DNA from: Candidatus Kaiserbacteria bacterium
Lineage (GTDB): Bacteria > Patescibacteriota > Minisyncoccia > Phycocordibacterales > UBA918
NCBI GenBank assembly: GCA_016699245.1
Contig: CP064968.1
Location: forward strand, 219,386 to 283,385
Direction of reading: 5' to 3'
Length of the DNA: 64,000 nt
In this document: positions 2,259 to 56,900 of the stretch, piece by piece
Layout of the letters: every line of letters begins with the position of its first letter
How positions within the stretch are numbered: the first letter of the stretch is position 1
The notes under the pieces: generated by a model
What the model saw: only the letters and a program-made list of their open reading frames with translations
What the model was told of the DNA's origin: nothing
Database searches by the model: none
Translations under genes and position numbers: made by a program

Positions 2259-3518
2259 ATGCAGTCCACATTTCACAACAGTACATTTCCCAAAGACTTA
2301 GTTAAAGAAGTGAGTAAAAAAGCCCATGCATACAGACTAAAAATAGAAAAAGTGCAGGAAAGTGGTATTTTTGAACGTTCTGAGTCCTCACTCTGTATCG
2401 CGGGCGATGGAGCGTACCAGAAAGACATCAAGAAACGTCTCGCTCCATTCACAGGCACAAAACACGTTATTTTGGTTGCTATTGGCGGCTCAATGCAGGG
2501 TGTGCAAGCTGTATATGATGCATGTGTCAGTAAAGAAATTCCTCGATTGAGTATTGTTGACAGTATCGAAGAGAAGTACATAGAAGATATGCGCCGCATC
2601 ATTAGTGTTACCAAAGATGCACGTGACATTGTGCTTGTCGTAGTGAGTAAGTCAGGAACAACGACAGAGACTATGCTCAATGCACTTCACATCATTGGAC
2701 TTTGGGAAAAAAAGTTTGGTGAGGCATTTTTAAAACAAATTATTTTCATTGGCAATGAAGGCACACCGTTTCTCGAAGCAGGAGCAAAAAAAAATATACT
2801 GAGCTTTACGCTTCCACATTCTATTGGGGGAAGGTTTTCCGTTTTTTCTGCTGTAGGCGTTGTACCGCTCACTCTTCTGGGAATAAATATACCGCAGTTA
2901 CTGAAAGGTGCACTTGATGCGGTCAAAAGTGAGGCACTCACTCACGTTGAAGAAAGTGCAGTTACGCTTGCACTCCATGCATATTCTGGAGTGCACACAG
3001 TCAACTTTTTTTCTTTTAACCGACGACTTCGTTCTTGTGGTTTATGGTACCGTCAGCTACTCGCCGAAAGTACTGGTAAAAGCACTACAAAAGCAGGGAC
3101 CCCCTTCATGCATCAGTTGCTTCCTATTGTATCAACAAGTGCAGATTTACACTCTAGTGCAGAACTGTATTTAGGAGGCTATACGGGTATCTATACACAC
3201 TTTGTGTACTACACTGAACGCACGAGCGCACGAATGCCTCAGGTTCATTGGTTACTCGAACACCTTCCGTTTCTTAAAAACAGAAAATCGTCAGTCATAA
3301 AAGATATTATTACCGAAGGTGTGCTTCATGCATATAATGACCAAATGCTTCCGTATCGCTACACAAAGTTAGAAAAATGCACCGAGTACGAAGTGGGTTT
3401 TCTCCTTGCGTCACTCATGGCAGAAGTAATGTATATTGGATATCTCTTCAACATCGACACCTTCGACCAACCCAGTGTGGAATTTTATAAAAAGTATGTA
3501 AGAGCAGAATTGAGTTAG
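2259..3518 (+). CDS. pgi: Glucose-6-phosphate isomerase (short form)
   Basis: IGGSMQG, SKSGTTTET, GGRFSVFSAVG motifs. Confidence 0.85.
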   Translation: MQSTFHNSTFPKDLVKEVSKKAHAYRLKIEKVQESGIFERSESSLCIAGDGAYQKDIKKRLAPFTGTKHVILVAIGGSMQGVQAVYDACVSKEIPRLSIVDSIEEKYIEDMRRIISVTKDARDIVLVVVSKSGTTTETMLNALHIIGLWEKKFGEAFLKQIIFIGNEGTPFLEAGAKKNILSFTLPHSIGGRFSVFSAVGVVPLTLLGINIPQLLKGALDAVKSEALTHVEESAVTLALHAYSGVHTVNFFSFNRRLRSCGLWYRQLLAESTGKSTTKAGTPFMHQLLPIVSTSADLHSSAELYLGGYTGIYTHFVYYTERTSARMPQVHWLLEHLPFLKNRKSSVIKDIITEGVLHAYNDQMLPYRYTKLEKCTEYEVGFLLASLMAEVMYIGYLFNIDTFDQPSVEFYKKYVRAELS

Positions 3519-3519
3519 T

Positions 3520-4371
3520 ATGTATATTCTTTTTGACATCGGCGGCACCAAAACCCGAGTAGCATCAACAAACGACCTAGAGACAATTCTTCGCGTAGAA
3601 AAATTTAATACTCCACTCTCGTATGCCGAAGGTCTTGCGGCTATTGTGGCAGCCATAGAAACAGTGCGTGGAGGTGAGAGTGTGACCGCGATGGCGGGAG
3701 GTATTCGAGGACCTCTCAATCACGAAAAGACTGGAATTGTGAGCGAAAAAGTTTTGATGGACTGGGTTGGGCGCTCGATTACTGGCGACCTCAACCAAAA
3801 ATATCATGCACCCGTGTTTCTCGAAAACGATACCGCCATAGTTGGTCTTGGAGAGGTGCATTACGGTGCAGGGAAGGGAGCAGACATAGTGGCGTACCAC
3901 ACGGTGAGTACTGGGGTAGGGGGTGCACGATATGTGCATGGGCACATTGATGCAGTAAGTGTCGGATTTGAGCCTGGCCAACAGATTTTGGATATTGATA
4001 GAACTATACTTGGCAGTCATGTGTCTCCAACTCTGGAAAATATGGTGTCAGGCACTGCGCTCGAAAAACGAAAGGGAATGAAGCCATATGAAATATCTCA
4101 GGAAGATCATGTATGGGACGAGCTCGCGGGAATATTGGCATTTGGACTTAAAAACACCATTGTGTACTGGTCTCCAGACGTTATTGTACTCGGTGGTTCT
4201 ATGGTAATTGGTGACCCCCGTATTCTCCTCCCCGACATCATTCGTCATACTGAAGAGGCCCTGGGCGGGCTTCTTCTATGCCCTAAGATAGTCGATGCAA
4301 CCTTGAAAGATGAGGGTGGACTCTATGGTGCGATGGCACTCATCAAAGAAAAACAAGGCAACATAAAATAA
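3520..4371 (+). CDS. ROK-family sugar kinase (glucokinase-like)
   Basis: FDIGGTKTR N-terminus, LENDTAIVGLGE, ROK signature spacing. Confidence 0.7.
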   Translation: MYILFDIGGTKTRVASTNDLETILRVEKFNTPLSYAEGLAAIVAAIETVRGGESVTAMAGGIRGPLNHEKTGIVSEKVLMDWVGRSITGDLNQKYHAPVFLENDTAIVGLGEVHYGAGKGADIVAYHTVSTGVGGARYVHGHIDAVSVGFEPGQQILDIDRTILGSHVSPTLENMVSGTALEKRKGMKPYEISQEDHVWDELAGILAFGLKNTIVYWSPDVIVLGGSMVIGDPRILLPDIIRHTEEALGGLLLCPKIVDATLKDEGGLYGAMALIKEKQGNIK

Positions 4372-6370: not shown

Positions 6371-6738
6371 TATTTTCGGAAATCATTCCGGAGATTTCTT
6401 ATAGTTGTGGGGTAGGGCATAGAACAGAATCTCAAAGATATAACTTTTAATTGCTGGATACCAAAGCACATAGGGAATACCTTGTTCTAGGATATGGTAA
6501 GCGTCGCACAATATATCTTTTACGACGTATAGTATATATACGTGGTGTTGTATATACACATACGCCCATAATGCGTTTTGAGGCGTTTTGTGCATTGTGC
6601 ATGGTATTTCCTGTTGTACTCAATGGTGTTGCTCTCTACCTCGTTCTATACAGCACTCACTCTTCCCTTGTGACTGAGAAAATAAAACGAAACATGATGT
6701 TGCTATCATGTGTCGCAATTATTTCCACAAAAAGTATT

Positions 6739-7218
6739 TTAAAAGGTGTTGGTCGAATACTGATTCCCGTCCCATACCATGGTTCCATCAGTGCTCCCAT
6801 TAAGTCGTATGTCATGCATGCCACTGGTGACACTCTCAAGAACCTCGATTTCTTTTACAGCGTATGCAAATGGTATAGGTGTAAGGAGACCATCTTCAGA
6901 GCGTATAAAGAGTGTTGTGATACAACCGCCACCACCACAGGTAGCGTCGGACTCTATGCGTGCAATAACATCCAGGTCGCGGTCACTGTTGAGATGTACC
7001 GGTGTAAGGACAAACTGTGCATCTTCGGGCAGCACAAAATCATTAATCGCAATATGTTCGTTGTAATGCGCACGCACCACATCATGTATGGTAGCGGTGC
7101 TCATTCCACTCAATAGTACGGATGCTCCCTCTGAATAGGTTTCGATGCCAGATGTCACCATTTGTCCGAGTACGTAGATGACTCCTATGAGAATAAAGGT
7201 GAGCAGTAATCTCTTCAT
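6739..7218 (-). CDS. Hypothetical secreted protein (signal peptide MKRLLLTFILIG...)
   Basis: ORF with N-terminal hydrophobic segment; GGGGC motif; no recognisable family. Confidence 0.4.
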   Translation of the reverse strand: MKRLLLTFILIGVIYVLGQMVTSGIETYSEGASVLLSGMSTATIHDVVRAHYNEHIAINDFVLPEDAQFVLTPVHLNSDRDLDVIARIESDATCGGGGCITTLFIRSEDGLLTPIPFAYAVKEIEVLESVTSGMHDIRLNGSTDGTMVWDGNQYSTNTF

Positions 7219-15893: not shown

Positions 15894-16799
15894 TTAATGA
15901 ACAACGTTACATGACATATCCTTTTTAGCCCCGTCTATGGTTATGGGGACACGTTCACCCTTAAATATTCCATCTGCTGTAAAAGTAACTCCCCAAGTAA
16001 AACGCGAGTGCTCAGCAGGACAAATTCCAAAAGATGGATCAATTCCTGAAACTCTAAATTGGCTCGCACCACCTTTTGGAAAGATCACCTCATCAACTAA
16101 AGGTTTTGCATTCTTATAAAAAACAAACGAATCACCGTCCCAAATATCAACTTGGTATTCTTTTCCGAGTGCACTAATATCCCAAATAGGAATTCTCACA
16201 CTATTAAACTTCGGGCTTCCATCAAAGGCTCGCCAGATGTAGCCAACAGTAATATTTGATCCGAGTTGCCTCTCGCTTATAACTAATTCATTAATAGAAT
16301 TCTGAACTGTTTCATCAAAAATTATAGTGGATGTAGATATTGCCTCTGTTTCATTTTGTTCTTTCGAAATTGTAGATTCCTTTTTTTGAACAACGGGTTT
16401 ATCCATCGGTAACTCTGTTACAACTTTTTTCGATATAGAATTTTGAACTGTTTCATCAGTAACTATTGTTGATGTAGATACTGCCTCTGTTCTATTTTGT
16501 TCTTTTGTAATTGTAGATTCTCTCGTTTGAACAATGGGTTCATCCATTGGTAACTTTTCTACAACTTTTTCTGATGTTGTCTCATTAGAGTCATCTTGTC
16601 CTGAAAAATTTTGCTGTGTATTCGGTGTTACCGTGATTTCTGTTTGTGTATCCTTAGTGAAGATAAAATATATTAAAATCACTCCAAAAATTATTGCAGT
16701 AAGAAGGATTATCTGAACTAGATTTTTCATTTGATCCAATTTTACCACGAGCACGGCAATCAGAGTGCGCATCTTTCCCCATCGTATTGCATAGGTCAT
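15894..16799 (-). CDS. Hypothetical membrane-anchored/secreted protein with ~48-aa internal tandem repeat
   Basis: N-terminal TM; two ~144-bp DNA repeats (about 16287-16575) encode a repeated T/S/E-rich module. Confidence 0.45.
   Translation of the reverse strand: MTYAIRWGKMRTLIAVLVVKLDQMKNLVQIILLTAIIFGVILIYFIFTKDTQTEITVTPNTQQNFSGQDDSNETTSEKVVEKLPMDEPIVQTRESTITKEQNRTEAVSTSTIVTDETVQNSISKKVVTELPMDKPVVQKKESTISKEQNETEAISTSTIIFDETVQNSINELVISERQLGSNITVGYIWRAFDGSPKFNSVRIPIWDISALGKEYQVDIWDGDSFVFYKNAKPLVDEVIFPKGGASQFRVSGIDPSFGICPAEHSRFTWGVTFTADGIFKGERVPITIDGAKKDMSCNVVH
16287..16575. repeat. Intragenic tandem repeat, 2 x ~144 bp, ~80% identical
   Basis: Read directly in DNA and in the repeated peptide VVEKLPMDEPIVQ.../VVTELPMDKPVVQ... 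Confidence 0.55.
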
Positions 16800-25660: not shown

Positions 25661-26959
25661 TCAAAGCCAGCCCCATTGTTTGAGAAGTTTGTGATTTTTC
25701 TCAAGGAATGAGAGCCCAATATCTTTACGGTAAAACTTCTGTGGGAGTACTACTTTTTCAATGAGTGTGTATGCACTATGGCGTGCCTCCTCTACGGTAC
25801 TTCCCGTTCCACTTACATGCATTACAAATCCATTTTCACTTGAAATGCGCATTGTTCCTTCGGTATCCATATACACATCTTCCAAGTGGATGCGCGATTG
25901 TTCCTCAGGTGTGAGGGGTGCACTATACGTGATTGGTGTGTCTATACATGAACCATTTTCAAGCGGTGTGCTGTATGGGAAGGGTGGTACTGCAACAAGT
26001 ACGGTAACTCCATATCCTTCAGAATACTCAAAATCGCATTGTTTCCCACGCGCCACATCATACAGAAAATCAGTAAAAGATGATGTAACAAGTACACGCT
26101 GAAGTTGCAGTGCAGGAAAACCAAAACGAGCAGTCCATTCAAGCGGAAAGACACCATGCTCGTTAATGATGCAGTTGATGTCTACGTCACCATGAAACTT
26201 GGCCAGTGCAAGAAATGGCTTGAGACGAGCGAGTGTGTCATTGAAAAGTTTATTGGATTCATCACGGTCAAACCACATGAGCGTACCCATCTCCCACGTT
26301 GTTGGGCCAGTGTCACCATCTTCAAGGCGTTTGTGCTCAATATTGTATTCAATCGGCCCCACCCAGTCGGTGCCATTGAAATACCGCGCAATACCAATTT
26401 CAACACCATGTACGCGTTCTTGTAGAATGATAGTGTTGCCGTTCACATCAGCCTCATTTAAAAGTGCGTCGATTACGTCCTGGCCATCATGTGCATTTCC
26501 GATATGTGTCGCGGTCATTTCGACATGGCCATTATGTTTTAGTACCCACTCTTTGGGATGATCTTCAATAAAACGAATAGCATTATTTTTGTTATTGAAA
26601 TGATGTGTTGGAAGAATTGTGAGTCCTGCGTCCCGAAGTACCTGTTGACCGTACTCACGGTCTTCTTCGCATCGTTCGGCCTCCTTACTCCCCCCAATGA
26701 CGGTATAGCCGTTCAGGCGAAGCTCATCCTGCTCATTACCAAAACCTGTGGTATCAAACACAATAAGTCCGTCCTTCCCTACCCACGCAAGTTCATCCTG
26801 CCAATTATCGATGAGTGTGAATCTTCCCTCGGCACTTTTTTTGTATTCCGGGTCATCGAGATATACTTTTAGCGTATGCCCTTCACGCATAAAAAAATCG
26901 CACATATCTACGATTGAAAAATCTCCAGATACTGCGAGTATGTTCATCTCTTTACTCAA
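25661..26959 (-). CDS. ATP-grasp ligase, PurD (phosphoribosylamine-glycine ligase)-like fold
   Basis: N-terminal pre-ATP-grasp domain followed by ATP-grasp-like blocks similar in order to PurD (YTVIGGSKEAERCEEDREYGQQVLRDAGLTILP...); overlaps the speH stop by 8 bp. Identity with PurD proper is not established. Confidence 0.5.
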   Translation of the reverse strand: MSKEMNILAVSGDFSIVDMCDFFMREGHTLKVYLDDPEYKKSAEGRFTLIDNWQDELAWVGKDGLIVFDTTGFGNEQDELRLNGYTVIGGSKEAERCEEDREYGQQVLRDAGLTILPTHHFNNKNNAIRFIEDHPKEWVLKHNGHVEMTATHIGNAHDGQDVIDALLNEADVNGNTIILQERVHGVEIGIARYFNGTDWVGPIEYNIEHKRLEDGDTGPTTWEMGTLMWFDRDESNKLFNDTLARLKPFLALAKFHGDVDINCIINEHGVFPLEWTARFGFPALQLQRVLVTSSFTDFLYDVARGKQCDFEYSEGYGVTVLVAVPPFPYSTPLENGSCIDTPITYSAPLTPEEQSRIHLEDVYMDTEGTMRISSENGFVMHVSGTGSTVEEARHSAYTLIEKVVLPQKFYRKDIGLSFLEKNHKLLKQWGWL

Positions 26960-27248
26960 CTTCCTTCACCCCATATTTTTTCATGTCTTCTACAAAAATC
27001 GCATGTTTTGCAGAATTGCATGACGAAAGTTCACAGTAGGTGGTTTTTTGCTCTGGAAACGTGTGGATAGCAAAATGGCTTTCGGCAATGAGCCATAAAG
27101 CTGTGTAGCCATAGGGATAAAAATGGTGCTCACTGAATCCAATCATCATAAACTCAGCCTTTTCTAATGCTGACTTACCGAATTCAAACACCTTTTTAGG
27201 GTCTGTCTCGTCAATGTAAAAACGAAAATTCCAAATTGTGGCTTTCAT
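26952..27248 (-). CDS. speH: S-adenosylmethionine decarboxylase proenzyme, small pyruvoyl-dependent class
   Basis: LIAESHFAIHTFPE self-processing ES site motif; ~100 aa. Confidence 0.7.
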   Translation of the reverse strand: MKATIWNFRFYIDETDPKKVFEFGKSALEKAEFMMIGFSEHHFYPYGYTALWLIAESHFAIHTFPEQKTTYCELSSCNSAKHAIFVEDMKKYGVKEVE

Positions 27249-27336: not shown

Positions 27337-28179
27337 TTATGGTATCACCTGTGAAAGCATGTGTACTCGCTGAGACTCCGAATACCAATTGGCTTGAATC
27401 AAGTTTGCATTTTTATGACCCGACGTAAGTGGTGCATTTTTCCCTGCTATCACAAGCGAGAAAGGGCCGCCATAGTACGTTGCAGCTCCACAGAATGTGA
27501 CATTGAGTACATTATCATTTCCAAATACTCGTATTGTATCCCGGGATACTGCTTGTAGTTCATTTGCTTGAAGGAGTCTTGATCCTCCAAGTCGCATGAG
27601 AATACCGTTTGTCGTAAGAAGTGAGTATATCTTGTCGGTGAATGCTCCCTGGAACAACGGTACTGCGTTACCAGTATTATCTGTAGTATCCATGAGGATT
27701 ATATCGAATGTGTTTTGTTCGGATAATGTATCAATGTGAGATGCATCTTCGTGAAGAATGGTAAGTCGCGAATCATTGAGTGCAGCATGAGATGCTGATG
27801 GAAAATGTAGTTTTGAAATTTCTGTAACGTGTGGGTCGATATCAACTATCGTGACTTTTTCAACAGTATGATGCTTGAGTACTTCGCGTGCGACTCCACA
27901 GTCTCCCCCGCCTATTATGAGCACATTTTGAGGGTTTTCATGAGAAAAAAGTGCGGTATGAGCCATACTCTCGTGATAAAAATATTCATCAAATTCCGCA
28001 AATTGCACGACATTGTCGAGCACAAGCACTTTTCCGAATCGAGGCGTATTAAGGACCATTAGTTTTTGAAAGCCAGTATTGTACTCAGGAACGAGCACGT
28101 CGCTAACTTCAAAACCAAAAGTATGGTCGGAATATAATTCTTCAAAAAACCATTGTTTCCCTCTGAATTCAGTAAGCAT
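27337..28179 (-). CDS. speE: Spermidine synthase (polyamine aminopropyltransferase)
   Basis: VLIIGGGDCGVAREVLKH, VDIDPHV motifs. Confidence 0.85.
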   Translation of the reverse strand: MLTEFRGKQWFFEELYSDHTFGFEVSDVLVPEYNTGFQKLMVLNTPRFGKVLVLDNVVQFAEFDEYFYHESMAHTALFSHENPQNVLIIGGGDCGVAREVLKHHTVEKVTIVDIDPHVTEISKLHFPSASHAALNDSRLTILHEDASHIDTLSEQNTFDIILMDTTDNTGNAVPLFQGAFTDKIYSLLTTNGILMRLGGSRLLQANELQAVSRDTIRVFGNDNVLNVTFCGAATYYGGPFSLVIAGKNAPLTSGHKNANLIQANWYSESQRVHMLSQVIP

Positions 28180-28228
28180 AAAATAAGTGTACGTTGTTTA
28201 TTTTAAATTACAATGATCGAATCAAACG

Positions 28229-28333
28229 TTACACAAAAAACAGAGCAACAAGCGGGAGGATGAGCCACCAGAAGAAGTTTTCTGTGGGGGCAAAGAGAGA
28301 CTGAATAGGAGTGCCTGGGGTAATGATTTCGGT
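28229..28333. repeat. Direct repeat copy 1 (105 bp, ~97% identical to 28881-28985): a displaced duplicate of the 3' end of the membrane-protein gene
   Basis: Read directly: ACACAAAAAACAGAGCAACAAG[C/T]GGGAGGATGAGCCACCAGAAGAAGTTTTCTGTGGGGGC[A/G]AAGAGAGACTGAATAGGAGTGCCTGGGGTAATGATTTCGGT. Confidence 0.8.
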
Positions 28334-28410
28334 CATGGCATTCACAAGCCTATATTACATTTTGACATACAGCCCTTCTCTGGTATTATATACATACATT
28401 TGGCATTAGC

Positions 28411-28430
28411 CACGTCCCCCGCCCGCAAGG
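28411..28430. terminator. GC hairpin CCCCGCCC-GCAA-GGGCGGGG immediately past the toxin-like gene stop
   Basis: Read directly; followed by ATTTAT on the plus strand. Confidence 0.45.
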
Positions 28431-28443
28431 GCGGGGATTTATG

Positions 28444-28842
28444 TTATATACCCAGTACTTTCCCTAGCTGGTCTTGAACTTTTTTAAAATCGATTGAATC
28501 AAGAGTCCCGATCCTTTTATCAAGTCTTCTATAATCGATATATCGAACTTGCGCAACATTTGCAGTGTTTTTTAACCCATCACTATGAGTTACATCAACA
28601 TACCATGATCCAGAATTTGATTTTGTAGAAAGTGGTACTCCTATAAATGATGTCTGTGAAAGTTTTTTTATAACCAAAACAGGACGTCTAAAAAATAGAT
28701 TTTTACCACACTCTTCAGAACCAACATTTACTCCAAACGTACACCACCATATTTCTCTGTCCTTAAAGAGCGGAGGTTTGTGCGAGTAGGTGTCAACATT
28801 CTTCTTGATAGTATTCCATTCATTAAATTGCTTTTTGTACAT
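28444..28842 (-). CDS. MazF/PemK-like (CcdB/MazF fold) toxin-like protein, orphan (no antitoxin ORF seen)
   Basis: EIWWCTFGVNVGSEECGKNLFFRRPVLVIKK...IGVPLSTKS matches the PemK/MazF pattern (W.v.F.p..GsE...RP.lVis...vvP.Ts). Confidence 0.5.
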   Translation of the reverse strand: MYKKQFNEWNTIKKNVDTYSHKPPLFKDREIWWCTFGVNVGSEECGKNLFFRRPVLVIKKLSQTSFIGVPLSTKSNSGSWYVDVTHSDGLKNTANVAQVRYIDYRRLDKRIGTLDSIDFKKVQDQLGKVLGI

Positions 28843-28880
28843 ATGAAAATATTATTTGCTTGAGTGAATATTTTTAATCA

Positions 28881-29360
28881 TTACACAAAAAACAGAGCAA
28901 CAAGTGGGAGGATGAGCCACCAGAAGAAGTTTTCTGTGGGGGCGAAGAGAGACTGAATAGGAGTGCCTGGGGTAATGATTTCGGTTACGGGGAGCGCGTG
29001 AAAACTAAATATCATGACAAGTATGGTACCCATGGCCGCGAGGAGTAGTTTTTTACCAAAGCGATGAAAGGCAGGCTCATAATCGTCGCCCGGAATATGG
29101 CGACGAAAAAGAAGTGTACCTACGACTACAAATGCAAGAAAGATGAGAATTTTTGCTATAGCGGCGCCGTCCCCCTCCCCCTGTGCTACTTGCTCATAGT
29201 ATGGAAATTTTATGGAGATAAGAAGTGCGAGGTAGAGAGCAAGAATTACATTAATGAGTGCATAACGCCCTCTTGCCATGGCATAAAAAAGAAGTACACC
29301 AAAAACCGAAATCATAAATACAGATTCCTTGAGTAGTGTGATGATGTCTTCAGGATTCAC
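28881..29360 (-). CDS. Hypothetical integral membrane protein
   Basis: 4 TM helices; its last ~35 codons form direct repeat copy 2 (28881-28985). Confidence 0.45.
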   Translation of the reverse strand: MNPEDIITLLKESVFMISVFGVLLFYAMARGRYALINVILALYLALLISIKFPYYEQVAQGEGDGAAIAKILIFLAFVVVGTLLFRRHIPGDDYEPAFHRFGKKLLLAAMGTILVMIFSFHALPVTEIITPGTPIQSLFAPTENFFWWLILPLVALFFV

Positions 29361-29446
29361 TTGTTATATTATACTCACTAATGAGTACTTTTGGGCTTGG
29401 GGTGTTTAGAACGTGTGGTATTTTTTCAAATGTATGTGTAAACAAA

Positions 29447-29483
29447 ACACCGCAAACCTTTTGGGTCTGCGGTGTTTTGTTAA
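29447..29483 (-). terminator. Intrinsic terminator downstream of dnaJ
   Basis: Hairpin AAAACACCGCAAACC/GGGTCTGCGGTGTTTT with a T-rich tail on the minus strand. Confidence 0.5.
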
Positions 29484-29489
29484 TGTGTT

Positions 29490-30563
29490 TTATATATTCT
29501 CCTTCCTCAATTCCTCGACAAGTCTTCGTGCATTTCTTGAAAGTTTCTCGGGGATGTCGATAGAAATCTTTGCATGGAAGTCGCCACGGGATGAGCCCAC
29601 GGGAACTCCCTTTCCTTTTATCCTCAGAATCTCACCGTGCTTCACCCCTTCAGGGATTTTAATTTGAATGATGCCATCGAGTGTCTCAACACCGTACGTC
29701 GCACCAAGGAGTGCATCGGTGAGTTTAACCTTAAGGGTCGTCTCAAGGGTGCTATCGCTCCTGTGGATGCTCTGGTGACGTTGTACATGCACCTTTATGT
29801 ATAAGTCACCAGAGGTACCGCCTTTTACTCCCTCTCCTCTGCCTGTCATACGAATCATCTCACCCGGTTCGATACCAGGAGGAACATTGATGTCGATAAT
29901 GTCCTCAGAACGTCGCACCCCGCCTCCTGCGCAATCGGCACATTTCTCCTTTGACATCTTTCCCGTCCCATTACAATCACTACATTCACGCACGGTTGCA
30001 AATTGTCCTAAGATACTTTGGCGCGTCTCGCGGATACGACCGTTACCATTACACGTAGCACAGGTAACCATCTCGCTCTTTGGCTTTGCACCCGTACCAT
30101 TACAGGTGTTGCAGGCATTATTCTTGGTGAGTTTGAGTGTTCGCTTGGTACCAAAAATTGATTCTTTGAAAGAGAGTTCGATGTCCACAGAGATGTCATT
30201 TCCACGTGCACGACGCTGTCCACCACCTCCACCGCCACCAAACATGTCGCCAAAGTTTTGGAAGATATCATTGATATCAAATTCTACTCCTGCACCACCA
30301 AAGCCACTTTGGAAACCACCCCACTGACCACCCTGTTGTGCTCCCGCACCGCCTCCTGTATACGAGCGACCAAAGGTGTCATACTCAGCACGCTTCTTCT
30401 CATCACTGAGTGTTGCGTATGCTTCGCTTATTTCCTTAAACTTTGCTTCGTCGCCCGTCTTCTTGTCGGGATGATACTTTGCAGCTAGTTTACGAAATGC
30501 CTTTTTCACCTCGTCTTTTGAGGCGCTTTTTTCGATACCGAGGATTTCGTAATAGTTTTTCAT
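29490..30563 (-). CDS. dnaJ: Chaperone DnaJ
   Basis: J domain YYEILGI...HPD, G/F region, four CxxCxGxG repeats. Confidence 0.9.
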   Translation of the reverse strand: MKNYYEILGIEKSASKDEVKKAFRKLAAKYHPDKKTGDEAKFKEISEAYATLSDEKKRAEYDTFGRSYTGGGAGAQQGGQWGGFQSGFGGAGVEFDINDIFQNFGDMFGGGGGGGQRRARGNDISVDIELSFKESIFGTKRTLKLTKNNACNTCNGTGAKPKSEMVTCATCNGNGRIRETRQSILGQFATVRECSDCNGTGKMSKEKCADCAGGGVRRSEDIIDINVPPGIEPGEMIRMTGRGEGVKGGTSGDLYIKVHVQRHQSIHRSDSTLETTLKVKLTDALLGATYGVETLDGIIQIKIPEGVKHGEILRIKGKGVPVGSSRGDFHAKISIDIPEKLSRNARRLVEELRKENI

Positions 30564-30569
30564 ACGATG

Positions 30570-32459
30570 TTAGTTAGTTGGCTTTTCTCCAGATTCAGCA
30601 TCGCGAATATTGCCTTCGTCGGGTTTTTGTTCTGGTTGCGCAGCACTTTCCTGTGGTGGTTGTTTTTGCATTGCTTCACCAATCTTCTGCATTTCTGAGG
30701 AAAGTTCTTGCGTTTTTGTTTTGATTGCCTCGTTGTCGTCTTTATCCTTGACCTCACGGAGCGCCTTCACTTTCTCTTCGACGCCTGCTTTGAGTTCTGG
30801 AGTAATAGCATCTTTGTGGTCGATAAGCGATTTTTCTGCAGTGTATATCATTTGATCAGCCAAGTTGCGTGATTCAATGAGTTGCTTCTTTTTCTCGTCC
30901 TCACCAGCGTGTGCTTCTGCCTCTTGTTTCATACGCTCGATGTCAGAAGGGGTGAGACCAGAGTTTGCCTCAATACGAATTTTCTGTTCTTTGCCGGTTG
31001 ACTTGTCTTTTGCAATTACATTAAGTACACCATTGGCGTCAACATCAAAGATAACCTCTACCTGCGGCATGCCACGAGGCGCAGGTGGGATACCATCGAG
31101 GATAAAGCGACCGAGTGATTTGTTGTCCCCTGCCATTGGGCGTTCTCCTTGTGTAATGTGAATCTCTACTGATGTTTGATTGTCAGCAGCAGTAGAAAAA
31201 ATTTGTTCTCGCTTGGTGGGAATGTGCGTGTTTTTCTCTACCAATTTTGTGGACACACCACCCATAGTTTCGATACCGAGTGAAAGTGGAATCACATCCA
31301 CGAGCGTGATGTCGTGCACATCGCCTTGCAGGATACCTGCTTGGATAGCCGCACCGAGCGCTACTACCTCGTCTGGATTTACCGTTTTGTTTGGCTCCTT
31401 TCCAAAGAGTTCTTTTACACGCTCGACGATACGGGGCATACGTGTCTGCCCTCCCACAAGAATGATTTCATCAATCTCTTCTTTTTTAAGTCCGGATGCT
31501 TCGAGTGCGCGCTTTGTAATCTCGATTGAGCGATCGATGTATTCGTGTGCAATTTCTTCGAGTTTTGCACGAGTGAGCTTCAAGAGAAGGTGTTTAGGAC
31601 CATTGGCGTCTGAGGTGATGAAGGGGATATTTATTTCCGCTTCGCCTGTTGAAGAAAGTTCATGTTTTGCTTTTTCTGCTGCTTCATCAAGACGCTGGAG
31701 TGCGAGCGCATCTTTGCCAAGGTCGATGCCTTCAAGACTCTTAAACTCAGCAATAAAATGACGAACAATTTTTTGATCGATGTCGCGGCCGCCCATGTGC
31801 GCATCACCATCAGTCGACTGTACCTCAATCACGTCATCACCTACTTCAAGTACGGTAACGTCAAAGGTACCGCCTCCAAAGTCAAATACCACAATTTTCT
31901 CCTCTTTCTTTTTATTAAAACCGTATGCGAGGGCTGCTGCAGTTGGCTCGTTAATGATGCGTTTTACGTCGAGACCAGCAATCTTTCCTGCATCCTGCGT
32001 TGCCTTTCTTTGTGCGTCGTTAAAGTAGGCAGGCACCGTTATAACTGCCTCAGTAATTTTTTCACCAAGTTTCGCCTCTGCATCTGCTTTCATTTTTGAA
32101 AGGATCATTGCAGAAACTTCTTCAGGGCGGTAGTCTTTCTCTCCCATGTGCACCACGACACCTTTGTCACTTCCCTCTCTTACTTCATATGGGACAATTC
32201 CTTTGTCGCTCTGAACTACCTTCTCGTCAAAGTTGTGACCCATAAAGCGCTTAATACCGTAGATGGTATTTTTTGGGTTGGTGACCGCCTGTCGTTTTGC
32301 AATTTGTCCCACAAGACGCTCTCCAGTTTTGGAAATAGCAACAATGGATGGTGTGGTGCGATTACCCTCCGCGTTTTCGATTATCGTCGGCTCGCTGCCT
32401 TCAATAATCGCCATTGCTGAGTTGGTTGTGCCAAGGTCAATACCAAGAATTTTTGCCAT
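30570..32459 (-). CDS. dnaK: Chaperone DnaK (Hsp70)
   Basis: [17 protein letters not shown] and other Hsp70 signatures. Confidence 0.95.
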
Positions 32460-33651: not shown

Positions 33652-33760
33652 GAGTACCTCCAAAATATGGTTGAAGTGAAAGTGTTTGAATTGAATCAGG
33701 AACTGAAGCAAATTTTATTTAATCACGATAATGGCGGAGCGTCAAGGTGCCCAAAAAATA

Positions 33761-34037
33761 ATGAGCGTGAGCGACTATATTTTTTGAGGCCTTCACTTTT
33801 TTATCTCCCCAGAGAAAAAAGTTAAGAAGCGACTGAACTTTGCAGAATCCAGAATATCTCCCATACCAATGACTCATACTCAGATGAGCGTGAGCGACTA
33901 TATTTTTTGAGGCCTTCACTTTTTTATCTCCCCAGAGAAAAAAGTTAAGAAGCGACTGAACTTTGCAGAATCCAGAATATCTCCCATACCAATGACTCAT
34001 ACTCAGATGAGCGTGAGCGACTATATTTTTTGAGGCC
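33761..34037. repeat. Perfect tandem duplication of a 123-bp unit (2.25 copies), intergenic
   Basis: Unit ATGAGCGTGAGCGACTATATTTTTTGAGGCCTTCAC...CAATGACTCATACTCAG repeated at 33761, 33884 and partially at 34007 with 100% identity. Confidence 0.85.
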
Positions 34038-34068
34038 ATGGGGCAGAAAAATATCGCTCCGGTCGTCG

Positions 34069-34099
34069 AAAAGAACAAATGCCCCGAAGGGGGCATTTG
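34069..34099 (-). terminator. Intrinsic terminator after rpsI
   Basis: Hairpin AAATGCCCC-GAAG-GGGGCATTT with T-run on the minus strand. Confidence 0.55.
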
Positions 34100-34101
34100 T
34101 T

Positions 34102-34509
34102 TTATCTTTTCGACCACTGTGGGCTTTTGCGGGCTTTTTTTAGACCGAACTTCTTTCGTTCTACGGCGCGAGGGTCGCGCTTGAGGAAGCCAGCTTTCTT
34201 GAGTGGGATGCGGCGCTCTGCCTTCTCTTTCAAGAGTGCACGTGCGATTCCTAGTCTAATGGCATCTGATTGTGAACTGAGTCCACCTCCTTGCACGTGT
34301 GCACTGATTTCGTAGTTCTCGATTCCTGCATCTGCAGTTTCAAGTACGGAGAGCAAATTTTTCTGGAGTGTTGCCGCGGTGAAGTACTCAGCAAGTGCCT
34401 TTTCATTCACGATTACTCGAGTCTCATTTGCTTTAGTGACACGAACACGTGCGGTTGCAGTTTTGCGTCGTCCAATTCCTTCAATATATTGTTTCGTTGC
34501 CATAGTCAT
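34102..34509 (-). CDS. rpsI: 30S ribosomal protein S9
   Basis: C-terminal ...KKARKSPQWSKR. Confidence 0.9.
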   Translation of the reverse strand: MTMATKQYIEGIGRRKTATARVRVTKANETRVIVNEKALAEYFTAATLQKNLLSVLETADAGIENYEISAHVQGGGLSSQSDAIRLGIARALLKEKAERRIPLKKAGFLKRDPRAVERKKFGLKKARKSPQWSKR

Positions 34510-47828: not shown

Positions 47829-48656
47829 TTATTTTGAGCCACAGAGTGATGATGCTTCGTGGAGCACAGCATCAAATTTTTGTTTTGGCAACCCGAGTTC
47901 GTGTAAAACAGAAGGGTTTTTACTAATATCAGAGCACAAGATGAATCCATGCTGAAGCAAGTACTGTTTCTGCCCGGTACTCAAATGTGTGAGCACTGTA
48001 ATTGGATATGTGCCAAGTCGCTCAATTTTTTTGTGGAGTGAATCATGCTTGGGATAATCCCAACTGAGTAATTTGATTCCACTACACTCAGCATACTTTA
48101 TAGCAGCATTTGTGAATTTTGTGTTGGTGATGAGGTACAGGGCAACAATACCATTAGTGTCGTGTTTTCCAATGCGTGCAGATTGTAAATCAAGATAGCG
48201 CGCATATGAGTACATTGCTACCTGCAAATCAGATTTGATACCTGGCTTTGCATGAAATTTTGCTTCTGCAATGAATGTTTCTGAGGGCGAATAAGCAGCA
48301 AGGTCAACTTCATGTACTGCACATTTTCCTCGTAGGACAAGACGACGCTTTGTCGTGTACCCTTCTGCTTCAAAAATTTTTCCAAGAAAATCTTCAAAGG
48401 GGAAACCCGTAGGGCCAAGGCTGAATACTGCACGGCGTAGTGAGTATTTTGCCGCAACAGGATCATCACTTTCACGGAGTAACTGAAATGCTTTTTGATA
48501 AATCAATTGCGTTTTCATGCCTTCCTTAAGTGATGTCTCTACTTCCATCAAAATACGCATGATTTCCTCCGGTCGCGCACCGGCTCTCTTAAGAGAAGAT
48601 ATAAGTTTATGTGACTTAAATTCTTCAGTTGTGCCATCGGCTTTTGTGATTATCAT
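47829..48656 (-). CDS. ATP-cone domain fused to a restriction-endonuclease-like PD-(D/E)xK (Mrr-cat-like) domain
   Basis: N-terminal MIITKADGTTEEF...AAKYSLRRA (ATP-cone); C-terminal VHEVDLAAY...FIAEAKFH (D...E.K); start overlaps the mnmA stop by 4 bp. Confidence 0.6.
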   Translation of the reverse strand: MIITKADGTTEEFKSHKLISSLKRAGARPEEIMRILMEVETSLKEGMKTQLIYQKAFQLLRESDDPVAAKYSLRRAVFSLGPTGFPFEDFLGKIFEAEGYTTKRRLVLRGKCAVHEVDLAAYSPSETFIAEAKFHAKPGIKSDLQVAMYSYARYLDLQSARIGKHDTNGIVALYLITNTKFTNAAIKYAECSGIKLLSWDYPKHDSLHKKIERLGTYPITVLTHLSTGQKQYLLQHGFILCSDISKNPSVLHELGLPKQKFDAVLHEASSLCGSK

Positions 48657-55678: not shown

Positions 55679-56599
55679 TTACATCAGGGGTTTCGTATCG
55701 AGCGGTGCCACTTTGCGTTCAAAACACCATTCACCTGCTCCGTGAGTCCAATTCATGTTTCCTTTTATGTATGAGTCATCCACATACATAGGCTGTGCAA
55801 ATTGCTGTTGCTCTGCTTTAGTTGATTCGTTTGCAAAGGTGGCACAAAGTTCATATGTTGTGGGACCAGTGACGCGGTATTCGTATGCTGTTCTTCCTTC
55901 AGGGGCTACAGGGATCTCGATACCCTGGAAGGCTTCAGTAAGAGTTTGGGGGAGTGTGTTGTCAGTACTGTAAAACGATTCAATATTTGACTGTATCAGC
56001 GAAAGATCACTTGTCTGTGTCGAATCGAGACGATACTCACGCACTTGATTTGGAGTCTGCGTATTCATAAAACCAAGTACCAGTGCTCCAATTACAATCA
56101 CCGTTGCACCAGCACCATACCATACAGACTCACGCTCGTGAGCCTGCCAATATCCCTTTGCGTCAAAAAGGTAGTACACAAATGCGGTAGTAACCACCAC
56201 AAAGAAAGAAAGTGCTTTGAGGGCAAAGCGAATGGTGAGTTCACCATTAAGGAATCCATTGATAACACTTACAAGGTCACCCAAAATTGCTGCACCCCCC
56301 ACGAGAAGTGAAAGATAGATGAGCCACTTGGTAAGCATGAGGTATGTACCATGTTCATTTCGACGGATGATGTTCACCAGTCGTGTGAGTACCAGATACA
56401 CCGGGAAAAAGACGATGAGCATTGCAATACTAAAACGGAGTGTCGAAGCAGCGCTCTCTACCTCCCAATAACCCTGTGCAGCGTCTGGATAATGTGCAGT
56501 AATAACACTGAACATGAGCATGATAAGACCAACGATAGTTACGTATAAAGAGACGAGTGAGCCCAATTGAAGGGCAAAATTTTTAGCTGTGTTTTCCAT
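55679..56599 (-). CDS. Hypothetical polytopic membrane protein
   Basis: ~6 TM helices; no motif. Confidence 0.4.
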   Translation of the reverse strand: MENTAKNFALQLGSLVSLYVTIVGLIMLMFSVITAHYPDAAQGYWEVESAASTLRFSIAMLIVFFPVYLVLTRLVNIIRRNEHGTYLMLTKWLIYLSLLVGGAAILGDLVSVINGFLNGELTIRFALKALSFFVVVTTAFVYYLFDAKGYWQAHERESVWYGAGATVIVIGALVLGFMNTQTPNQVREYRLDSTQTSDLSLIQSNIESFYSTDNTLPQTLTEAFQGIEIPVAPEGRTAYEYRVTGPTTYELCATFANESTKAEQQQFAQPMYVDDSYIKGNMNWTHGAGEWCFERKVAPLDTKPLM

Positions 56600-56630: not shown

Positions 56631-56900
56631 AGTAAAGAACCCAACTCCGGAGGAGTTGGACCAGGGGTTCTTTGCTAGCATAGGAATCGGCCACCGCCGA
56701 TGCTATTTTTATGTCGCTAAGCGCGACGGACTAGTAAAGAACCACACTCTGAAAGAGTATGACCAGGGTTCTTTGCTAGCATAGGAATCGGCCACCGCCG
56801 ATGCATTTTTTATGTCGCTAAGCGCGACAGACTAGTAAAGAACCCAACACTCAAAAGTGTAGGACCGGGGGTTCTTTGTTAGTAACTGAAGTCATTTTTA
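56631..56900. repeat. Array of three ~101-bp structured units (A 56631-56732, B 56733-56833, C 56834-~56900): variable hairpin + conserved terminator-like hairpin
   Basis: Each unit = AGTAAAGAACC + variable palindromic ~17 nt + ACCAGGGGTTCTTT, then (A, B) GCTAGCATAGGAATCGGCCACCGCCGATGCTATTTTT and GTCGCTAAGCGCGAC. The variable tips are each self-complementary. Confidence 0.75.

Follow-up and report, generated by a model that had tools for sequence, protein, structure and literature searches.

A predicted MazF-fold protein with a probable small RNA antitoxin, bracketed by a duplicated gene end in a Kaiserbacteria chromosome

How is a MazF/PemK-like toxin restrained when no protein antitoxin gene lies beside it, and how did its gene come to stand between two copies of the end of a neighbouring gene? 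Both questions are raised by a locus within a 64-kb window (the whole stretch of DNA analysed here, in whose positions all coordinates are given) of a Candidatus Kaiserbacteria genome of 1.05 Mb. Read along the minus strand, the locus begins with a membrane-protein gene (28881-29360; 159 aa, QQR65175.1, IPH92_01160), whose last 34 codons and stop constitute repeat copy B (28881-28985). A spacer of 38 nt (28843-28880) separates the stop codon of this gene from the ATG of the toxin gene (28444-28842), which encodes a putative endoribonuclease toxin of 132 aa (QQR65174.1). Further downstream lie repeat copy A (28229-28333), a spacer of 49 nt (28180-28228) and the start codon of speE (27337-28179; spermidine synthase according to Pfam), which heads a speE-speD-ATP-grasp cluster. 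The GC content of the cassette is 0.32-0.35, compared to 0.40-0.50 in the flanks.

The 132-aa product is, as judged from profile matches and its predicted structure, a genuine MazF/PemK-fold protein, bearing out an identity that the earlier note on this DNA had proposed from signature motifs. It matched PF02452 (PemK_toxin) over residues 29-130 (E=1.1e-12; 48.5 bits, with a cut-off of 23.1), and a family profile searched against the PDB matched EndoA/MazF (E=5e-7). With the AlphaFold2 model of the protein (mean pLDDT 79.5) as query, the top 50 Foldseek matches in the PDB were all MazF, at a probability of 1.00 and a target-normalised TM score of 0.62-0.76 (typically about 0.7). R53, in the motif F-R-R-P-V-L-V, does not vary among 22 homologues and corresponds in the alignment to the Arg of R-P-V-L-V in B. 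subtilis EndoA, and a Ser/Thr at positions 72-73 (P-L-S-T) is kept in the alignment of toxin homologues. The positions of the catalytic Arg and Ser/Thr (R25 and T48 in B. subtilis MazF) thus appear to be retained. An N-terminal extension of 28 aa carries an F-x-E/D-W-N motif. At 50% identity, this N-terminally extended MazF subfamily forms about 1,900 clusters, with members from CPR bacteria, Campylobacterota and phage contigs; everywhere its members, including the window protein, are annotated as orphan type II toxins.

Type II MazEF and PemIK (Kid-Kis) share with the window toxin the fold, the Pfam family and the positions of the catalytic Arg and Ser/Thr. In contrast to these systems, the window and the homologous loci have no upstream MazE/PemI gene, the window toxin has its additional 28-aa N-terminal helix, and the candidate partner is a downstream RNA gene on the opposite strand. 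Upstream of the toxin there are only the 38 nt of the spacer, which contain neither a promoter match nor an ORF and have no conserved counterpart at other toxin loci. Downstream, small ORFs are limited to 28311-28409 (plus strand) and 28229-28345 (minus strand), both of which fall outside, or just partly inside, the block conserved across homologous loci. No protein antitoxin ORF adjoins the toxin here or in homologous loci, no MazE neighbour was found in 12 homologous contexts, and toxin homologues stand solo in many different surroundings. The earlier note was thus right that no neighbouring gene encodes a protein antitoxin. Its description of the toxin as an orphan is probably wrong, given a conserved convergent promoter and a structured RNA at the toxin 3' end; these features, together with a small RNA of C. 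jejuni plasmid pVir (see below), lend support to its guess that the antitoxin may be an RNA.

DNA homology among the toxin loci starts at ATG-3 and continues for about 80 nt beyond the stop codon, ending at 28362 in the window. Within its 3' part, a block consisting of TATAACATAAAT, a hairpin and GACGTGGCTAATGCCAAATGTA is conserved more strongly than the toxin coding sequence and retains 22 invariant nucleotides. A promoter on the plus strand (28362-28389) is composed of a -35 element TTGACA (28362-28367), a 16-nt spacer and a TG-extended -10 element TATTAT (28384-28389). This is an 11/12 match and the sole promoter-like site in 28100-29500. A sigma-70 promoter (TTGACW, 16-18 nt, TAnnnT) was present on the strand opposite the toxin in 10/10 distinct toxin loci, spanning 39-100% protein identity, and additionally in a viral contig (L049); the -35/-10 arrangement keeps the same position across the loci although the spacers differ. 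In the window, this promoter would give rise to a small RNA of ~50 nt (about 28396-28445, plus strand, with inferred ends), the 3' tail of which overlaps the toxin stop codon. Its predicted order is 5' ACAUUUGG, hairpin 1 (GGC-AUUA-GCC), ACGUC and a GC-rich hairpin (28417-28436, plus strand; CCCCGCCC-GCAA-GGGCGGGG, then AUUUAUGUUA) serving as intrinsic terminator. Toxin gene and RNA gene together make up a toxin-RNA module of ~485 bp (28845 to 28362), which is followed by a junction of 28 nt (28334-28361), unique to this locus, and then by copy A.

The predicted RNA had a minimum free energy of -25.4 kcal/mol (z = -3.7). Compensatory changes were found in 7 of the 11 base pairs, across both helices, and the stem of the GC hairpin covaries across loci. 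Paired cells amounted to 90%, as against 35-48% in slid controls, and none of 500 shuffles reached the observed values. A covariance model of the RNA matched the window at 28394-28449 with 68.9 bits; its 19 matches in 300 kb all lie beside toxin homologues and are always antisense to them. The viral contig L049 carries three tandem RNA units, downstream of the toxin and convergent with it. A folded-strand test based on G-U versus A-C counts gave a small difference (4 vs 2). No Rfam family matched the window at the gathering threshold, a permissive scan of 28200-28900 returned chance hits only, and the 22-nt RNA motif had no exact match in viral contigs. Two other readings of the conserved 3' block, as a dif/Xer site or as an attC site, were rejected by eye for want of a XerC arm and of core sites, respectively.

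The GC hairpin with its trailing U-tract appears from these features to be the intrinsic terminator of the plus-strand RNA and not of the toxin mRNA. A U-tract follows the hairpin on the plus strand; none follows it on the toxin strand. The earlier note had described a hairpin at 28411-28430 as the toxin's own terminator. The hairpin itself is real; its location is 28417-28436, and by consensus it is a plus-strand terminator, which assigns it to the opposite-strand RNA. This assignment also bears on the possibility that the protein is a true orphan, which would lack toxicity or answer to an antitoxin from another locus, with the 3' block doing no more than terminating or stabilising the toxin mRNA. 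Such a reading would account for the lack of an adjoining protein antitoxin at every locus examined and for the absence of a PADLOC or NCBIfam system match (neither the toxin nor the membrane protein was recognised by either), and it takes the RNA function for the prediction that it is. We nevertheless regard it as improbable, because the hairpin has its U-tract on the opposite strand only, after a promoter kept in every locus, because 22 invariant nucleotides and a positioned promoter exceed the needs of a mere terminator, and because the opposite-strand RNA on pVir is abundant and has been detected by Northern blotting.

This RNA belongs to plasmid pVir of C. jejuni 81-176, where the PemK/MazF homologue pVir0047 shares 39% identity with the window toxin (tblastn, E=8e-14). 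A transcription start site on the strand opposite pVir0047, at 31119(-), has a step height of 16164, as compared to 28 for the start site of the toxin (PMC3656092 Tables S5, S12). The locus also has CJpv3, a convergent small RNA of 77 nt confirmed by Northern blotting, the end of which lies about 5 nt away from the pVir0047 stop (PMC3656092). As in the window, a toxin of the N-extended MazF subfamily (F-D-E-W-N ... G-K ... RPVLV) without protein antitoxin is combined with a strong opposite-strand promoter and a short structured RNA ending a few nucleotides from the toxin stop. The same layout of toxin and convergent RNA was seen for homologues from Nitratiruptor, H. suis, the CJIE4 prophage and viral contigs. 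The two systems differ in the length of the RNA (77 nt versus about 50 nt) and in their setting (a Campylobacterota plasmid versus a CPR chromosome), and their small RNAs are not similar by covariance model: model R1 gave no match at E<=1 in the Campylobacterota loci (L040-L043). Since the model is blind to Campylobacterota RNAs, the precedent is architectural rather than a demonstrated homology. A type I pair, CjpT/CjrA, was reportedly described by Shen et al. 2016 (Mol Microbiol 101:909), and pVir0047/CJpv3 is possibly this published pair. Passages in papers citing that work present CjrA as an antisense RNA antitoxin on pVir. Our search of the literature on CjpT, pVir0047 and CJpv3 found nothing further, and one review of RNA-regulated toxin-antitoxin (TA) systems makes no mention of this Campylobacter system.

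Together, the conserved promoter, the covarying structure and the position at the toxin stop codon suggest that the convergent small RNA is probably the missing antitoxin of the MazF-type toxin. The module would then consist of two genes only, a MazF-fold endoribonuclease and a convergent structured RNA of ~50 nt with its own promoter. As to the mode of action, the toxin strand has no U-tract past the shared hairpin, so that transcription of the toxin gene should continue into the RNA gene and yield transcripts fully complementary to the small RNA. For this reason our default is a type I-like mode, in which the small RNA would act as antisense to the 3' end of the toxin mRNA. The overlap between the small RNA and the mRNA hinges on the toxin 3' UTR, the RNA gene abutting the stop codon. 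Pairing elsewhere was not supported: between the 5' part of the RNA and the toxin start region, a perfect match of 9 nt occurs in one locus only (L001) and is not conserved, and a search of the entire toxin mRNA yielded no conserved site (z about 0 relative to shuffles). A type III-like mode, in which the RNA binds the toxin directly, would be nearly as likely as antisense control. The conserved primary sequence at the RNA 5' end and the tandem units of L049 would fit protein binding better than pure cis-antisense regulation.

Known systems resemble the module in part. In the type I systems par Fst/RNA II of E. faecalis and TxpA/RatA and BsrG/SR4 of B. subtilis, the antitoxins are convergent antisense RNAs that overlap the toxin transcript at the 3' end. 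The window locus likewise has convergent genes, a common hairpin/terminator and an RNA with its own strong promoter. However, the Fst, TxpA and BsrG toxins are small hydrophobic peptides, whereas the window toxin is a soluble RNase-fold protein of 132 aa, and its small RNA has no conserved complementarity to the toxin translation start. In the type III systems ToxIN, CptIN and TenpIN, an endoribonuclease toxin with a Kid/MazF-like fold is partnered by a small structured RNA, a combination that the window module would share; its viral-contig relative L049 has tandem RNA units as well. In contrast to type III systems, where a tandem-repeat RNA array precedes the toxin gene, with a terminator in between, and is processed by the toxin, the window has a single convergent RNA unit, located downstream and equipped with its own promoter, and the toxin belongs to PF02452 and not to the ToxN/AbiQ family. 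A MazF-fold toxin under RNA control, if confirmed, would blur the boundaries between types I, II and III. Should the partner indeed be an RNA, many "orphan MazF" genes among the roughly 1,900 relative clusters now labelled type II would be complete toxin-RNA modules, the antitoxins of which are missed by computational TA censuses. The ~485-bp locus offers a simple experimental system for RNA restraint of a MazF RNase.

How the module came to be bracketed by a gene end is the second question. On alignment, copies A and B form a gapless direct repeat with 103/105 identical positions (98.1%), in agreement with the ~97% reported in the earlier note, and at 95% identity the pair extends to 115 nt (28224-28338 and 28876-28990). 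Alignment and reading frames also confirm that the second copy is the authentic 3' end of the membrane-protein gene and the first a displaced one. A 22-nt probe from the repeat hit 2 sites in the 64-kb window, with 0 expected from shuffles, and the window has no other direct repeat that is non-tandem, reaches 40 nt and has its copies within 5 kb. The membrane-gene stop codon forms the exact end of the repeat. Between the copies there are 2 synonymous and 0 non-synonymous differences (T/C and G/A), for which a neutrality test gave P=0.06-0.25; with just 2 differing sites, an origin of the copies as alleles and a recent duplication in situ are inseparable at this locus.

More informative were the related genomes. 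The membrane protein has no Pfam or NCBIfam family; its gene closes a syntenic block of dnaK, dnaJ and the membrane-protein gene, the stop codon of which borders a variable slot. Orthologues adjoin dnaJ in about 23 loci, with differing genes downstream. Of the 20 anchor-gene loci that were examined first (the window and L010-L028), 4 have a TA module directly after the membrane-gene stop. In one of these (L012), HicBA stands between two 135-nt copies of this gene end. The unit there is of similar size (655 bp, compared to 652 bp in the window), and the upstream edges of the two repeats lie 30 nt apart. Elsewhere, the toxin-RNA module is bracketed by a 63-nt local repeat in an intergenic stretch (L001) or by an 86-nt local repeat representing an internal HisKA segment (L004). 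The copies differ by 9 synonymous and 3 non-synonymous codon changes in L012, where mismatches are mostly T/C transitions, and by 7 and 3, respectively, in L004. If all these differences were neutral, such a bias would have P<0.001. The copies in L012 and L004 thus look like two functional alleles. Furthermore, comparison of L001 with L002 revealed that homology breaks exactly at the bracket.

The earlier note had read the repeats as the footprint of a ~650-bp cassette insertion with a long target duplication, and had named as the empty site a membrane gene directly followed by speE. The arrangement does differ in close relatives (L044-L047), which carry neither toxin nor repeat. Their gene order is membrane gene, EamA, speE, and homology of the window to L044 and L046 resumes exactly at the speE ATG (Blast breakpoints). 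A strict empty site, with the membrane gene directly before speE, was not found among genome and metagenome contigs carrying the membrane protein or its 90% cluster. The downstream flanks of the window showed no likeness to the native post-stop region of relatives (eight comparisons, p 0.37-0.89), nor did the 49-nt spacer show significant similarity to it. A target duplication of the transposition type does not fit the brackets of 63-135 nt, made of local sequence that differs between sites, the allele-like copies in L012 and L004 or the lack of a transposase or integrase. Neither the unit nor its neighbours nor the 10 mid-size ORFs scanned yielded a recombinase, transposase or integrase.

We hold, with slightly better than even confidence, that the module sits in the variable slot with the RNA as its antitoxin and was joined to the locus by additive, homology-anchored recombination. 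The slot would start where the conserved membrane-protein gene has its stop codon, with the module as its occupant, and the 105-bp repeat would be a second allele of the gene end left as a relic of the event. Two downstream haplotypes, membrane gene followed by the module and membrane gene followed by speE, would thereby have been united, with either the module or the speE block as the incoming part. One joint would have formed through homology in the gene end, and the other either illegitimately or when a circularised fragment integrated by a single crossover, all without a dedicated recombinase. Brackets that differ in length and sequence from site to site speak for recombination driven by homology and against a site-specific reaction. 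The recurrence of long allele-like brackets around small TA modules at a conserved gene end suggests a way in which tiny, recombinase-poor CPR genomes may gain accessory genes, through additive recombination of this kind. A still broader proposition unites this route with a type III-like mechanism: the subfamily would constitute an unrecognised toxin-RNA class, in which a MazF RNase is bound by a two-hairpin RNA of ~50 nt from a single convergent unit, and TA cassettes would spread in CPR bacteria without recombinases, by additive integration at conserved gene ends with brackets of 60-135 nt. We put this forward tentatively, as a reading that is less likely than not.

An error of replication in situ could also produce brackets of local sequence. 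A fork engaged in template switching or microhomology-mediated break-induced replication would have copied the gene end, jumped to a module template, returned and re-copied 105 nt, resulting in a tandem duplication with an insertion at the junction and a displaced copy that decays as a pseudo-fragment. Variable bracket lengths and the near-identity of the window copies would be explained with no need for a recombinase. We consider this origin unlikely, however, because it does not predict the mostly synonymous differences in L012 and L004 (P<0.001 under neutrality) or the haplotypes of L001 and L002 that break exactly at the bracket, and leaves unexplained why this gene end took up TA cargo on two occasions, differing each time.

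A similar trace is left by elements that put a new 3' end on a gene. In E. coli, e14 and phage 21 replace the 3' end of icd and leave an icdC pseudogene. A non-autonomous site-specific mini-element (CIME-like, or akin to e14 and phage 21) would be a circle of ~650 bp whose attP imitates the final 105-135 nt of the membrane gene; upon insertion by a tyrosine or serine recombinase from another locus, it would supply a substitute gene end and displace the original. The series of intact gene end, cargo and displaced end of ~100-165 nt is common to e14/phage 21, the window and L012. Together with synonymous-only differences it is the signature of 3'-end-replacing elements, and the same gene end has been used twice by units of 652 and 655 bp. 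In contrast to e14 and phage 21, the cargo in the window is about 550 bp, with neither an integrase nor a constant crossover core. The 30-nt shift of the repeat edge between the window and L012 and the lack of an integrase in the unit, the neighbours and the 10 ORFs scanned also speak against such an element. Moreover, the modules in L001 and L004 are bracketed by unrelated local sequences, leaving no common att core. This origin is likewise unlikely.

A transposon- or integron-type cassette, duplicating its target at a staggered cut, would be compatible with a direct repeat flanking a small gene unit. We judge it very unlikely, as variable duplications of 63-135 nt go far beyond known transposase staggers and the copies look like two alleles. 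Terminal inverted repeats, attC-like core sites, a transposase and IntI were all absent; specifically, no RYYYAAC...GTTRRRY pair surrounds the hairpin, and no integrase is present among the neighbours and scanned ORFs.

Compared to the additive recombination proposed above, a diversity-generating retroelement (DGR), with copy B as variable repeat and copy A as template repeat, is almost certainly the wrong description. DGRs are common in CPR bacteria, and the layout has a superficial likeness to theirs, with ~100 nt from the 3' end of a surface- or membrane-protein gene repeated in a nearby non-coding copy. The mismatches refute this reading, since they are not adenine-specific (T/C and G/A in the window, mostly T/C in L012). 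In addition, no reverse transcriptase is encoded among the flanking genes, and the in-gene copy is conserved across membrane-gene orthologues rather than hypervariable. The two variable sites of the repeat are split among relatives. Note that copy A retains an intact reading frame with an ATG exactly at its upstream edge, which could encode a peptide of 35 aa (38 aa from a GTG).

The toxin and membrane proteins of this AT-rich bacterial DNA are identical to QQR65174.1 and QQR65175.1, respectively, from a Candidatus Kaiserbacteria MAG (1.05-Mb contig). The protein-coding genes of the locus lie on the minus strand. The 159-aa membrane-protein gene, here memb (29360-28881), ends in copy B of the direct repeat (28881-28985), which comprises its last 34 codons and stop. 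A 38-nt spacer leads from the memb stop to the ATG of the 132-aa toxin ORF (28842-28444), followed by a GC hairpin (28417-28436), the displaced copy A (28229-28333), a 49-nt spacer and then speE, speD and an ATP-grasp gene in that order. Alignment of the two copies without gaps gave 103 equal positions out of 105, confirming the 105-bp direct repeats described around the toxin; the hairpin reported downstream of the toxin is also present, at coordinates slightly different from those in the earlier note. The similarity reaches 115 nt if a few mismatches are allowed, and the stop codon of memb is the exact end of the repeat. A 22-nt repeat probe matched only the two copies in 64 kb (0 expected), and no further non-tandem repeat of comparable size was found in the window. 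The toxin cassette has a low GC content.

The toxin matches PF02452 (PemK_toxin) far over the curated cut-off, and a profile of 22 homologues matched B. subtilis EndoA/MazF in the PDB at E=5e-7. An AlphaFold2 model (pLDDT 79.5) found exclusively MazF structures as top fold matches, with the R-P-V-L-V Arg and the P-L-S-T Ser/Thr both retained. Sequence, fold and catalytic residues all assign the toxin to the PemK/MazF family, as proposed earlier. Residues 1-28 add an N-terminal helix in which an F...W...K motif is invariant. The subfamily comprises 1,861 clusters (50% identity) with full-length matches at E<=1e-10; no model covering it was found in NCBIfam or PADLOC. A MazE-like gene never preceded the homologues (39-83% identical) in many unrelated contexts, in agreement with the reported lack of a neighboring protein antitoxin. 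The toxin locus is not arranged as a type II module.

DNA similarity among toxin loci extends from 3 nt before the ATG to ~80 nt beyond the stop codon, with the 3' block more conserved than the coding sequence. This block consists of TATAACATAAAT, the GC hairpin with compensatory stem substitutions and an invariant GACGTGGCTAATGCCAAATGTA. There is no U-tract after the hairpin on the toxin strand. On the opposite strand, all 10 distinct loci carry TTGAC(A/T), 16-18 nt and a TG-extended TAnnnT; the spacers are unrelated among these loci although the boxes are kept. Approximately 7 nt past the -10 box, all 10 continue with A(C/U)AUUUGG and a short hairpin (GGC-loop-GCC; GGG-loop-CCC in distant members), and in the 3' part with the GC hairpin and, directly after it, AUUUAU. 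The promoter in the window (28362-28389, +; 11/12 match) is the only promoter-like site within 1.4 kb. Together with an intrinsic terminator at 28417-28436 (+), it predicts a small RNA at ~28396-28445 (+), and so the search for a conserved RNA in the intergenic stretch downstream of the toxin yielded a candidate.

The predicted RNA folds at -25.4 kcal/mol (z = -3.7), and both helices were backed by RNAalifold and explicit pair counting: 90% of cells were paired, compared to 35-48% with slid partners, with both-sided changes in 7 of 11 pairs, and none of 500 shuffles reached the observed values. A covariance model built from these RNAs gave 19 matches in 300 kb of fetched loci, each adjoining a toxin homologue and on the strand opposite to it. 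Toxin transcripts probably extend into the RNA gene and would then be complementary to the RNA. The earlier guess that an antitoxin might be RNA is substantially strengthened by the conserved promoter and covarying RNA, which on sequence grounds probably serves as the antitoxin.

A tblastn search of plasmids placed the same toxin subfamily in Campylobacter, Helicobacter and Nitratiruptor plasmids and in CJIE4 prophages. Opposite pVir0047 of C. jejuni 81-176, dRNA-seq placed a primary TSS at 31119 (step height 16164, compared to 28 for the toxin's own TSS at 30608), and the 77-nt sRNA CJpv3 (31119 to 31043) was detected by Northern blot (Dugar et al., PMC3656092). CJpv3 ends ~5 nt from the pVir0047 stop codon, and the sequence of the probe used for the blot is present in this pVir stretch. 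The pVir0047/CJpv3 pair thus resembles the window pair in layout. Two citing papers name an antisense RNA, CjrA, as the antitoxin in a type I system on pVir; CjpT, the toxin of that system, is possibly pVir0047. At the equivalent place in the Nitratiruptor, H. suis and prophage loci, two or three hairpins come after a -10 box. Since the covariance model detected none of the Campylobacterota RNAs, the likeness is architectural. In a viral contig (L049, IMGVR_UViG_3300001102_000060), three tandem sRNA-like units, reminiscent of type III antitoxin arrays, lie downstream of a toxin homologue of 45% identity (3340-3560, -). Each consists of UAUUUGGCC-loop-GGCC and a GC hairpin, and at least two of the three have their own -35/-10 boxes.

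Two modes of action can be envisaged. The RNA could pair antisense with the 3' end of the toxin mRNA, as suggested by the convergent geometry and similar to the par, RatA and SR4-type type I systems. Alternatively, it could bind the toxin directly in a type III-like manner; the type III toxin ToxN also has a MazF-like fold. Direct binding is favored by the 5' part of the RNA, which is invariant where the gene's synonymous sites have diverged, and by the tandem units in the viral contig. No conserved pairing of the RNA with the toxin start region or coding sequence was found. We place the antisense mode slightly ahead, solely because it needs no extra assumption. The module combines traits of type I systems with 3'-convergent RNAs and traits of type III systems, but has the full defining set of neither.

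How did the repeat arise? The order dnaK-dnaJ-memb is syntenic in ~23 related loci, while the genes beyond the memb stop vary. In L012, a relative with a memb protein of 82-84% identity, the final 135 nt of memb occur twice, 655 nt apart, compared to 652 nt in the window. This duplication brackets a HicB-HicA pair and likewise ends at the stop codon; the in-gene copy is followed by the native post-stop promoter region of three other relatives, L044, L046 and L047 (30/34 identical, p<0.0005). Two further relatives (L010 and L025) carry DinJ/YafQ-like pairs immediately past the memb stop without duplication. By eye, their translations are DinJ/RelB-like and YafQ/RelE-like (L010 2186-2729; L025 1406-1983). 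In L010, a 202-aa IS200/Y1-like ORF (848-1557, RAYT-type, HxH motif) also lies between dnaJ and memb on the opposite strand, flanked by two perfect 28-nt palindromic repeats, AAATCGTAGGGGTCAGACCCCTACGATT. The closest relatives with the speE cluster, L044 and L046 (82-88% nucleotide identity), lack toxin and repeat, indicating that the window arrangement is lineage-specific. Homology to the window ends 5 nt past the memb stop and resumes at the speE ATG. These relatives carry EamA between memb and speE, and a strictly empty site was not found.

Brackets recur elsewhere. In L001, two copies of a 63-nt sequence (spacing 660) enclose the toxin-RNA module; in L004, the enclosing repeat is 86 nt long and its first copy is inside a histidine-kinase gene. 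In L009, 100 nt bracket an NYN-domain gene adjoining the module. The identity of L001 to L002 is 98.7% until precisely where the second copy begins, and the next 1.5 kb have diverged. Codon differences between copies are mostly synonymous: 2 synonymous and 0 non-synonymous in the window, 9 and 3 in L012 (two of the 3 at the fading repeat edge), and 7 and 3 in L004. If the displaced copies were neutral pseudo-fragments, mainly non-synonymous differences would be expected (P<0.001 were all of them neutral). Judged by their codons, the copies thus resemble two alleles, first diverging under constraint on the protein and joined afterwards. Both L012 copies carry an E-to-D change that is absent from all other orthologues, suggesting that its alleles came from closely related genomes.

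The data fit homology-anchored joining at a TA-prone slot, in place of the insertion with a long target duplication proposed earlier. Two haplotypes with a common anchor gene and different downstream sequences (memb-module and memb-speE) would have recombined additively. One joint would lie within the common gene end; the other would be illegitimate or result from single-crossover (Campbell-type) integration of a circularized fragment. The right repeat edge would be the stop codon because synteny ends there, and a variable left edge and allele-like copies would follow. With only two differences between copies, the window repeat may stem from a recent in-situ event. Template switching during replication, which could also duplicate a gene end, is an unlikely source. 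A diversity-generating retroelement (DGR) is excluded by the mismatches, which are not adenine-specific. Insertion by a transposon or integron cassette is extremely improbable: there are no ends and no enzymes, the duplication is of the wrong size, and bracket sequences are unrelated from site to site. Replacement of the icd 3' end by e14 and phage 21 leaves a similar bracket, but the bracket here comes with neither integrase nor fixed core. No recombinase was found within or adjoining the cassette among the neighbor genes and the 10 mid-size ORFs scanned, and a site-specific mini-element mobilized in trans is quite improbable.

The displaced copy A retains an intact open frame (28229-28345, -). 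An ATG stands precisely at its upstream edge, where the gene has GTA (Val), so that a hydrophobic peptide of 35 aa, MTEIITPG...LFFV, could be encoded (38 aa if started at a GTG); the displaced L012 copy has GTG at the equivalent codon. In L004, a called 79-aa gene downstream of the toxin module (6641-6856) is a displaced HATPase_c fragment of the upstream histidine kinase (FDKFVRAKNANRINVTGTGLGLFVAQKMV) with a frame-shifted, degenerate tail. The metagenomic contig L009 (1500-3900) contains three successive HicB/HicA-like pairs, between which a 63-nt terminator-plus-promoter segment recurs (spacings 535 and 519), then the toxin-sRNA module and the bracketed NYN-domain gene (spacing 645), with a second PemK gene (35% identical) 2 kb further, forming an array of small TA-like cassettes.

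Elsewhere in the window, a perfect tandem duplication (33761-34037; 123-nt unit, 2.3 copies, 100% identity) falls within a 132-aa ORF that looks spurious (33719-34117, -), shortly downstream of the grpE/dnaK region. A 101-nt unit (x2.5, 86-92% identity; 56631-56882) with the GC-rich palindromes GGCCACCGCCGATGC and GTCGCTAAGCGCGAC adjoins a DUF5671 gene (55679-56599). The 141-nt unit at 16294-16570 (x2, 80-84% identity) looks like an internal protein repeat of a 301-aa ORF (15894-16799, -) with no Pfam match. A 275-aa protein (47829-48656, -) carries an ATP-cone domain together with weak matches to the Mrr_cat restriction-endonuclease and AF1548-like C-terminal domains. After speE follow a short speD (98 aa) and a 432-aa ATP-grasp protein with GARS_A/GARS_C similarity (25661-27248, -); conservation of the trio in L044 points to an operon that modifies polyamines rather than one for purine synthesis.
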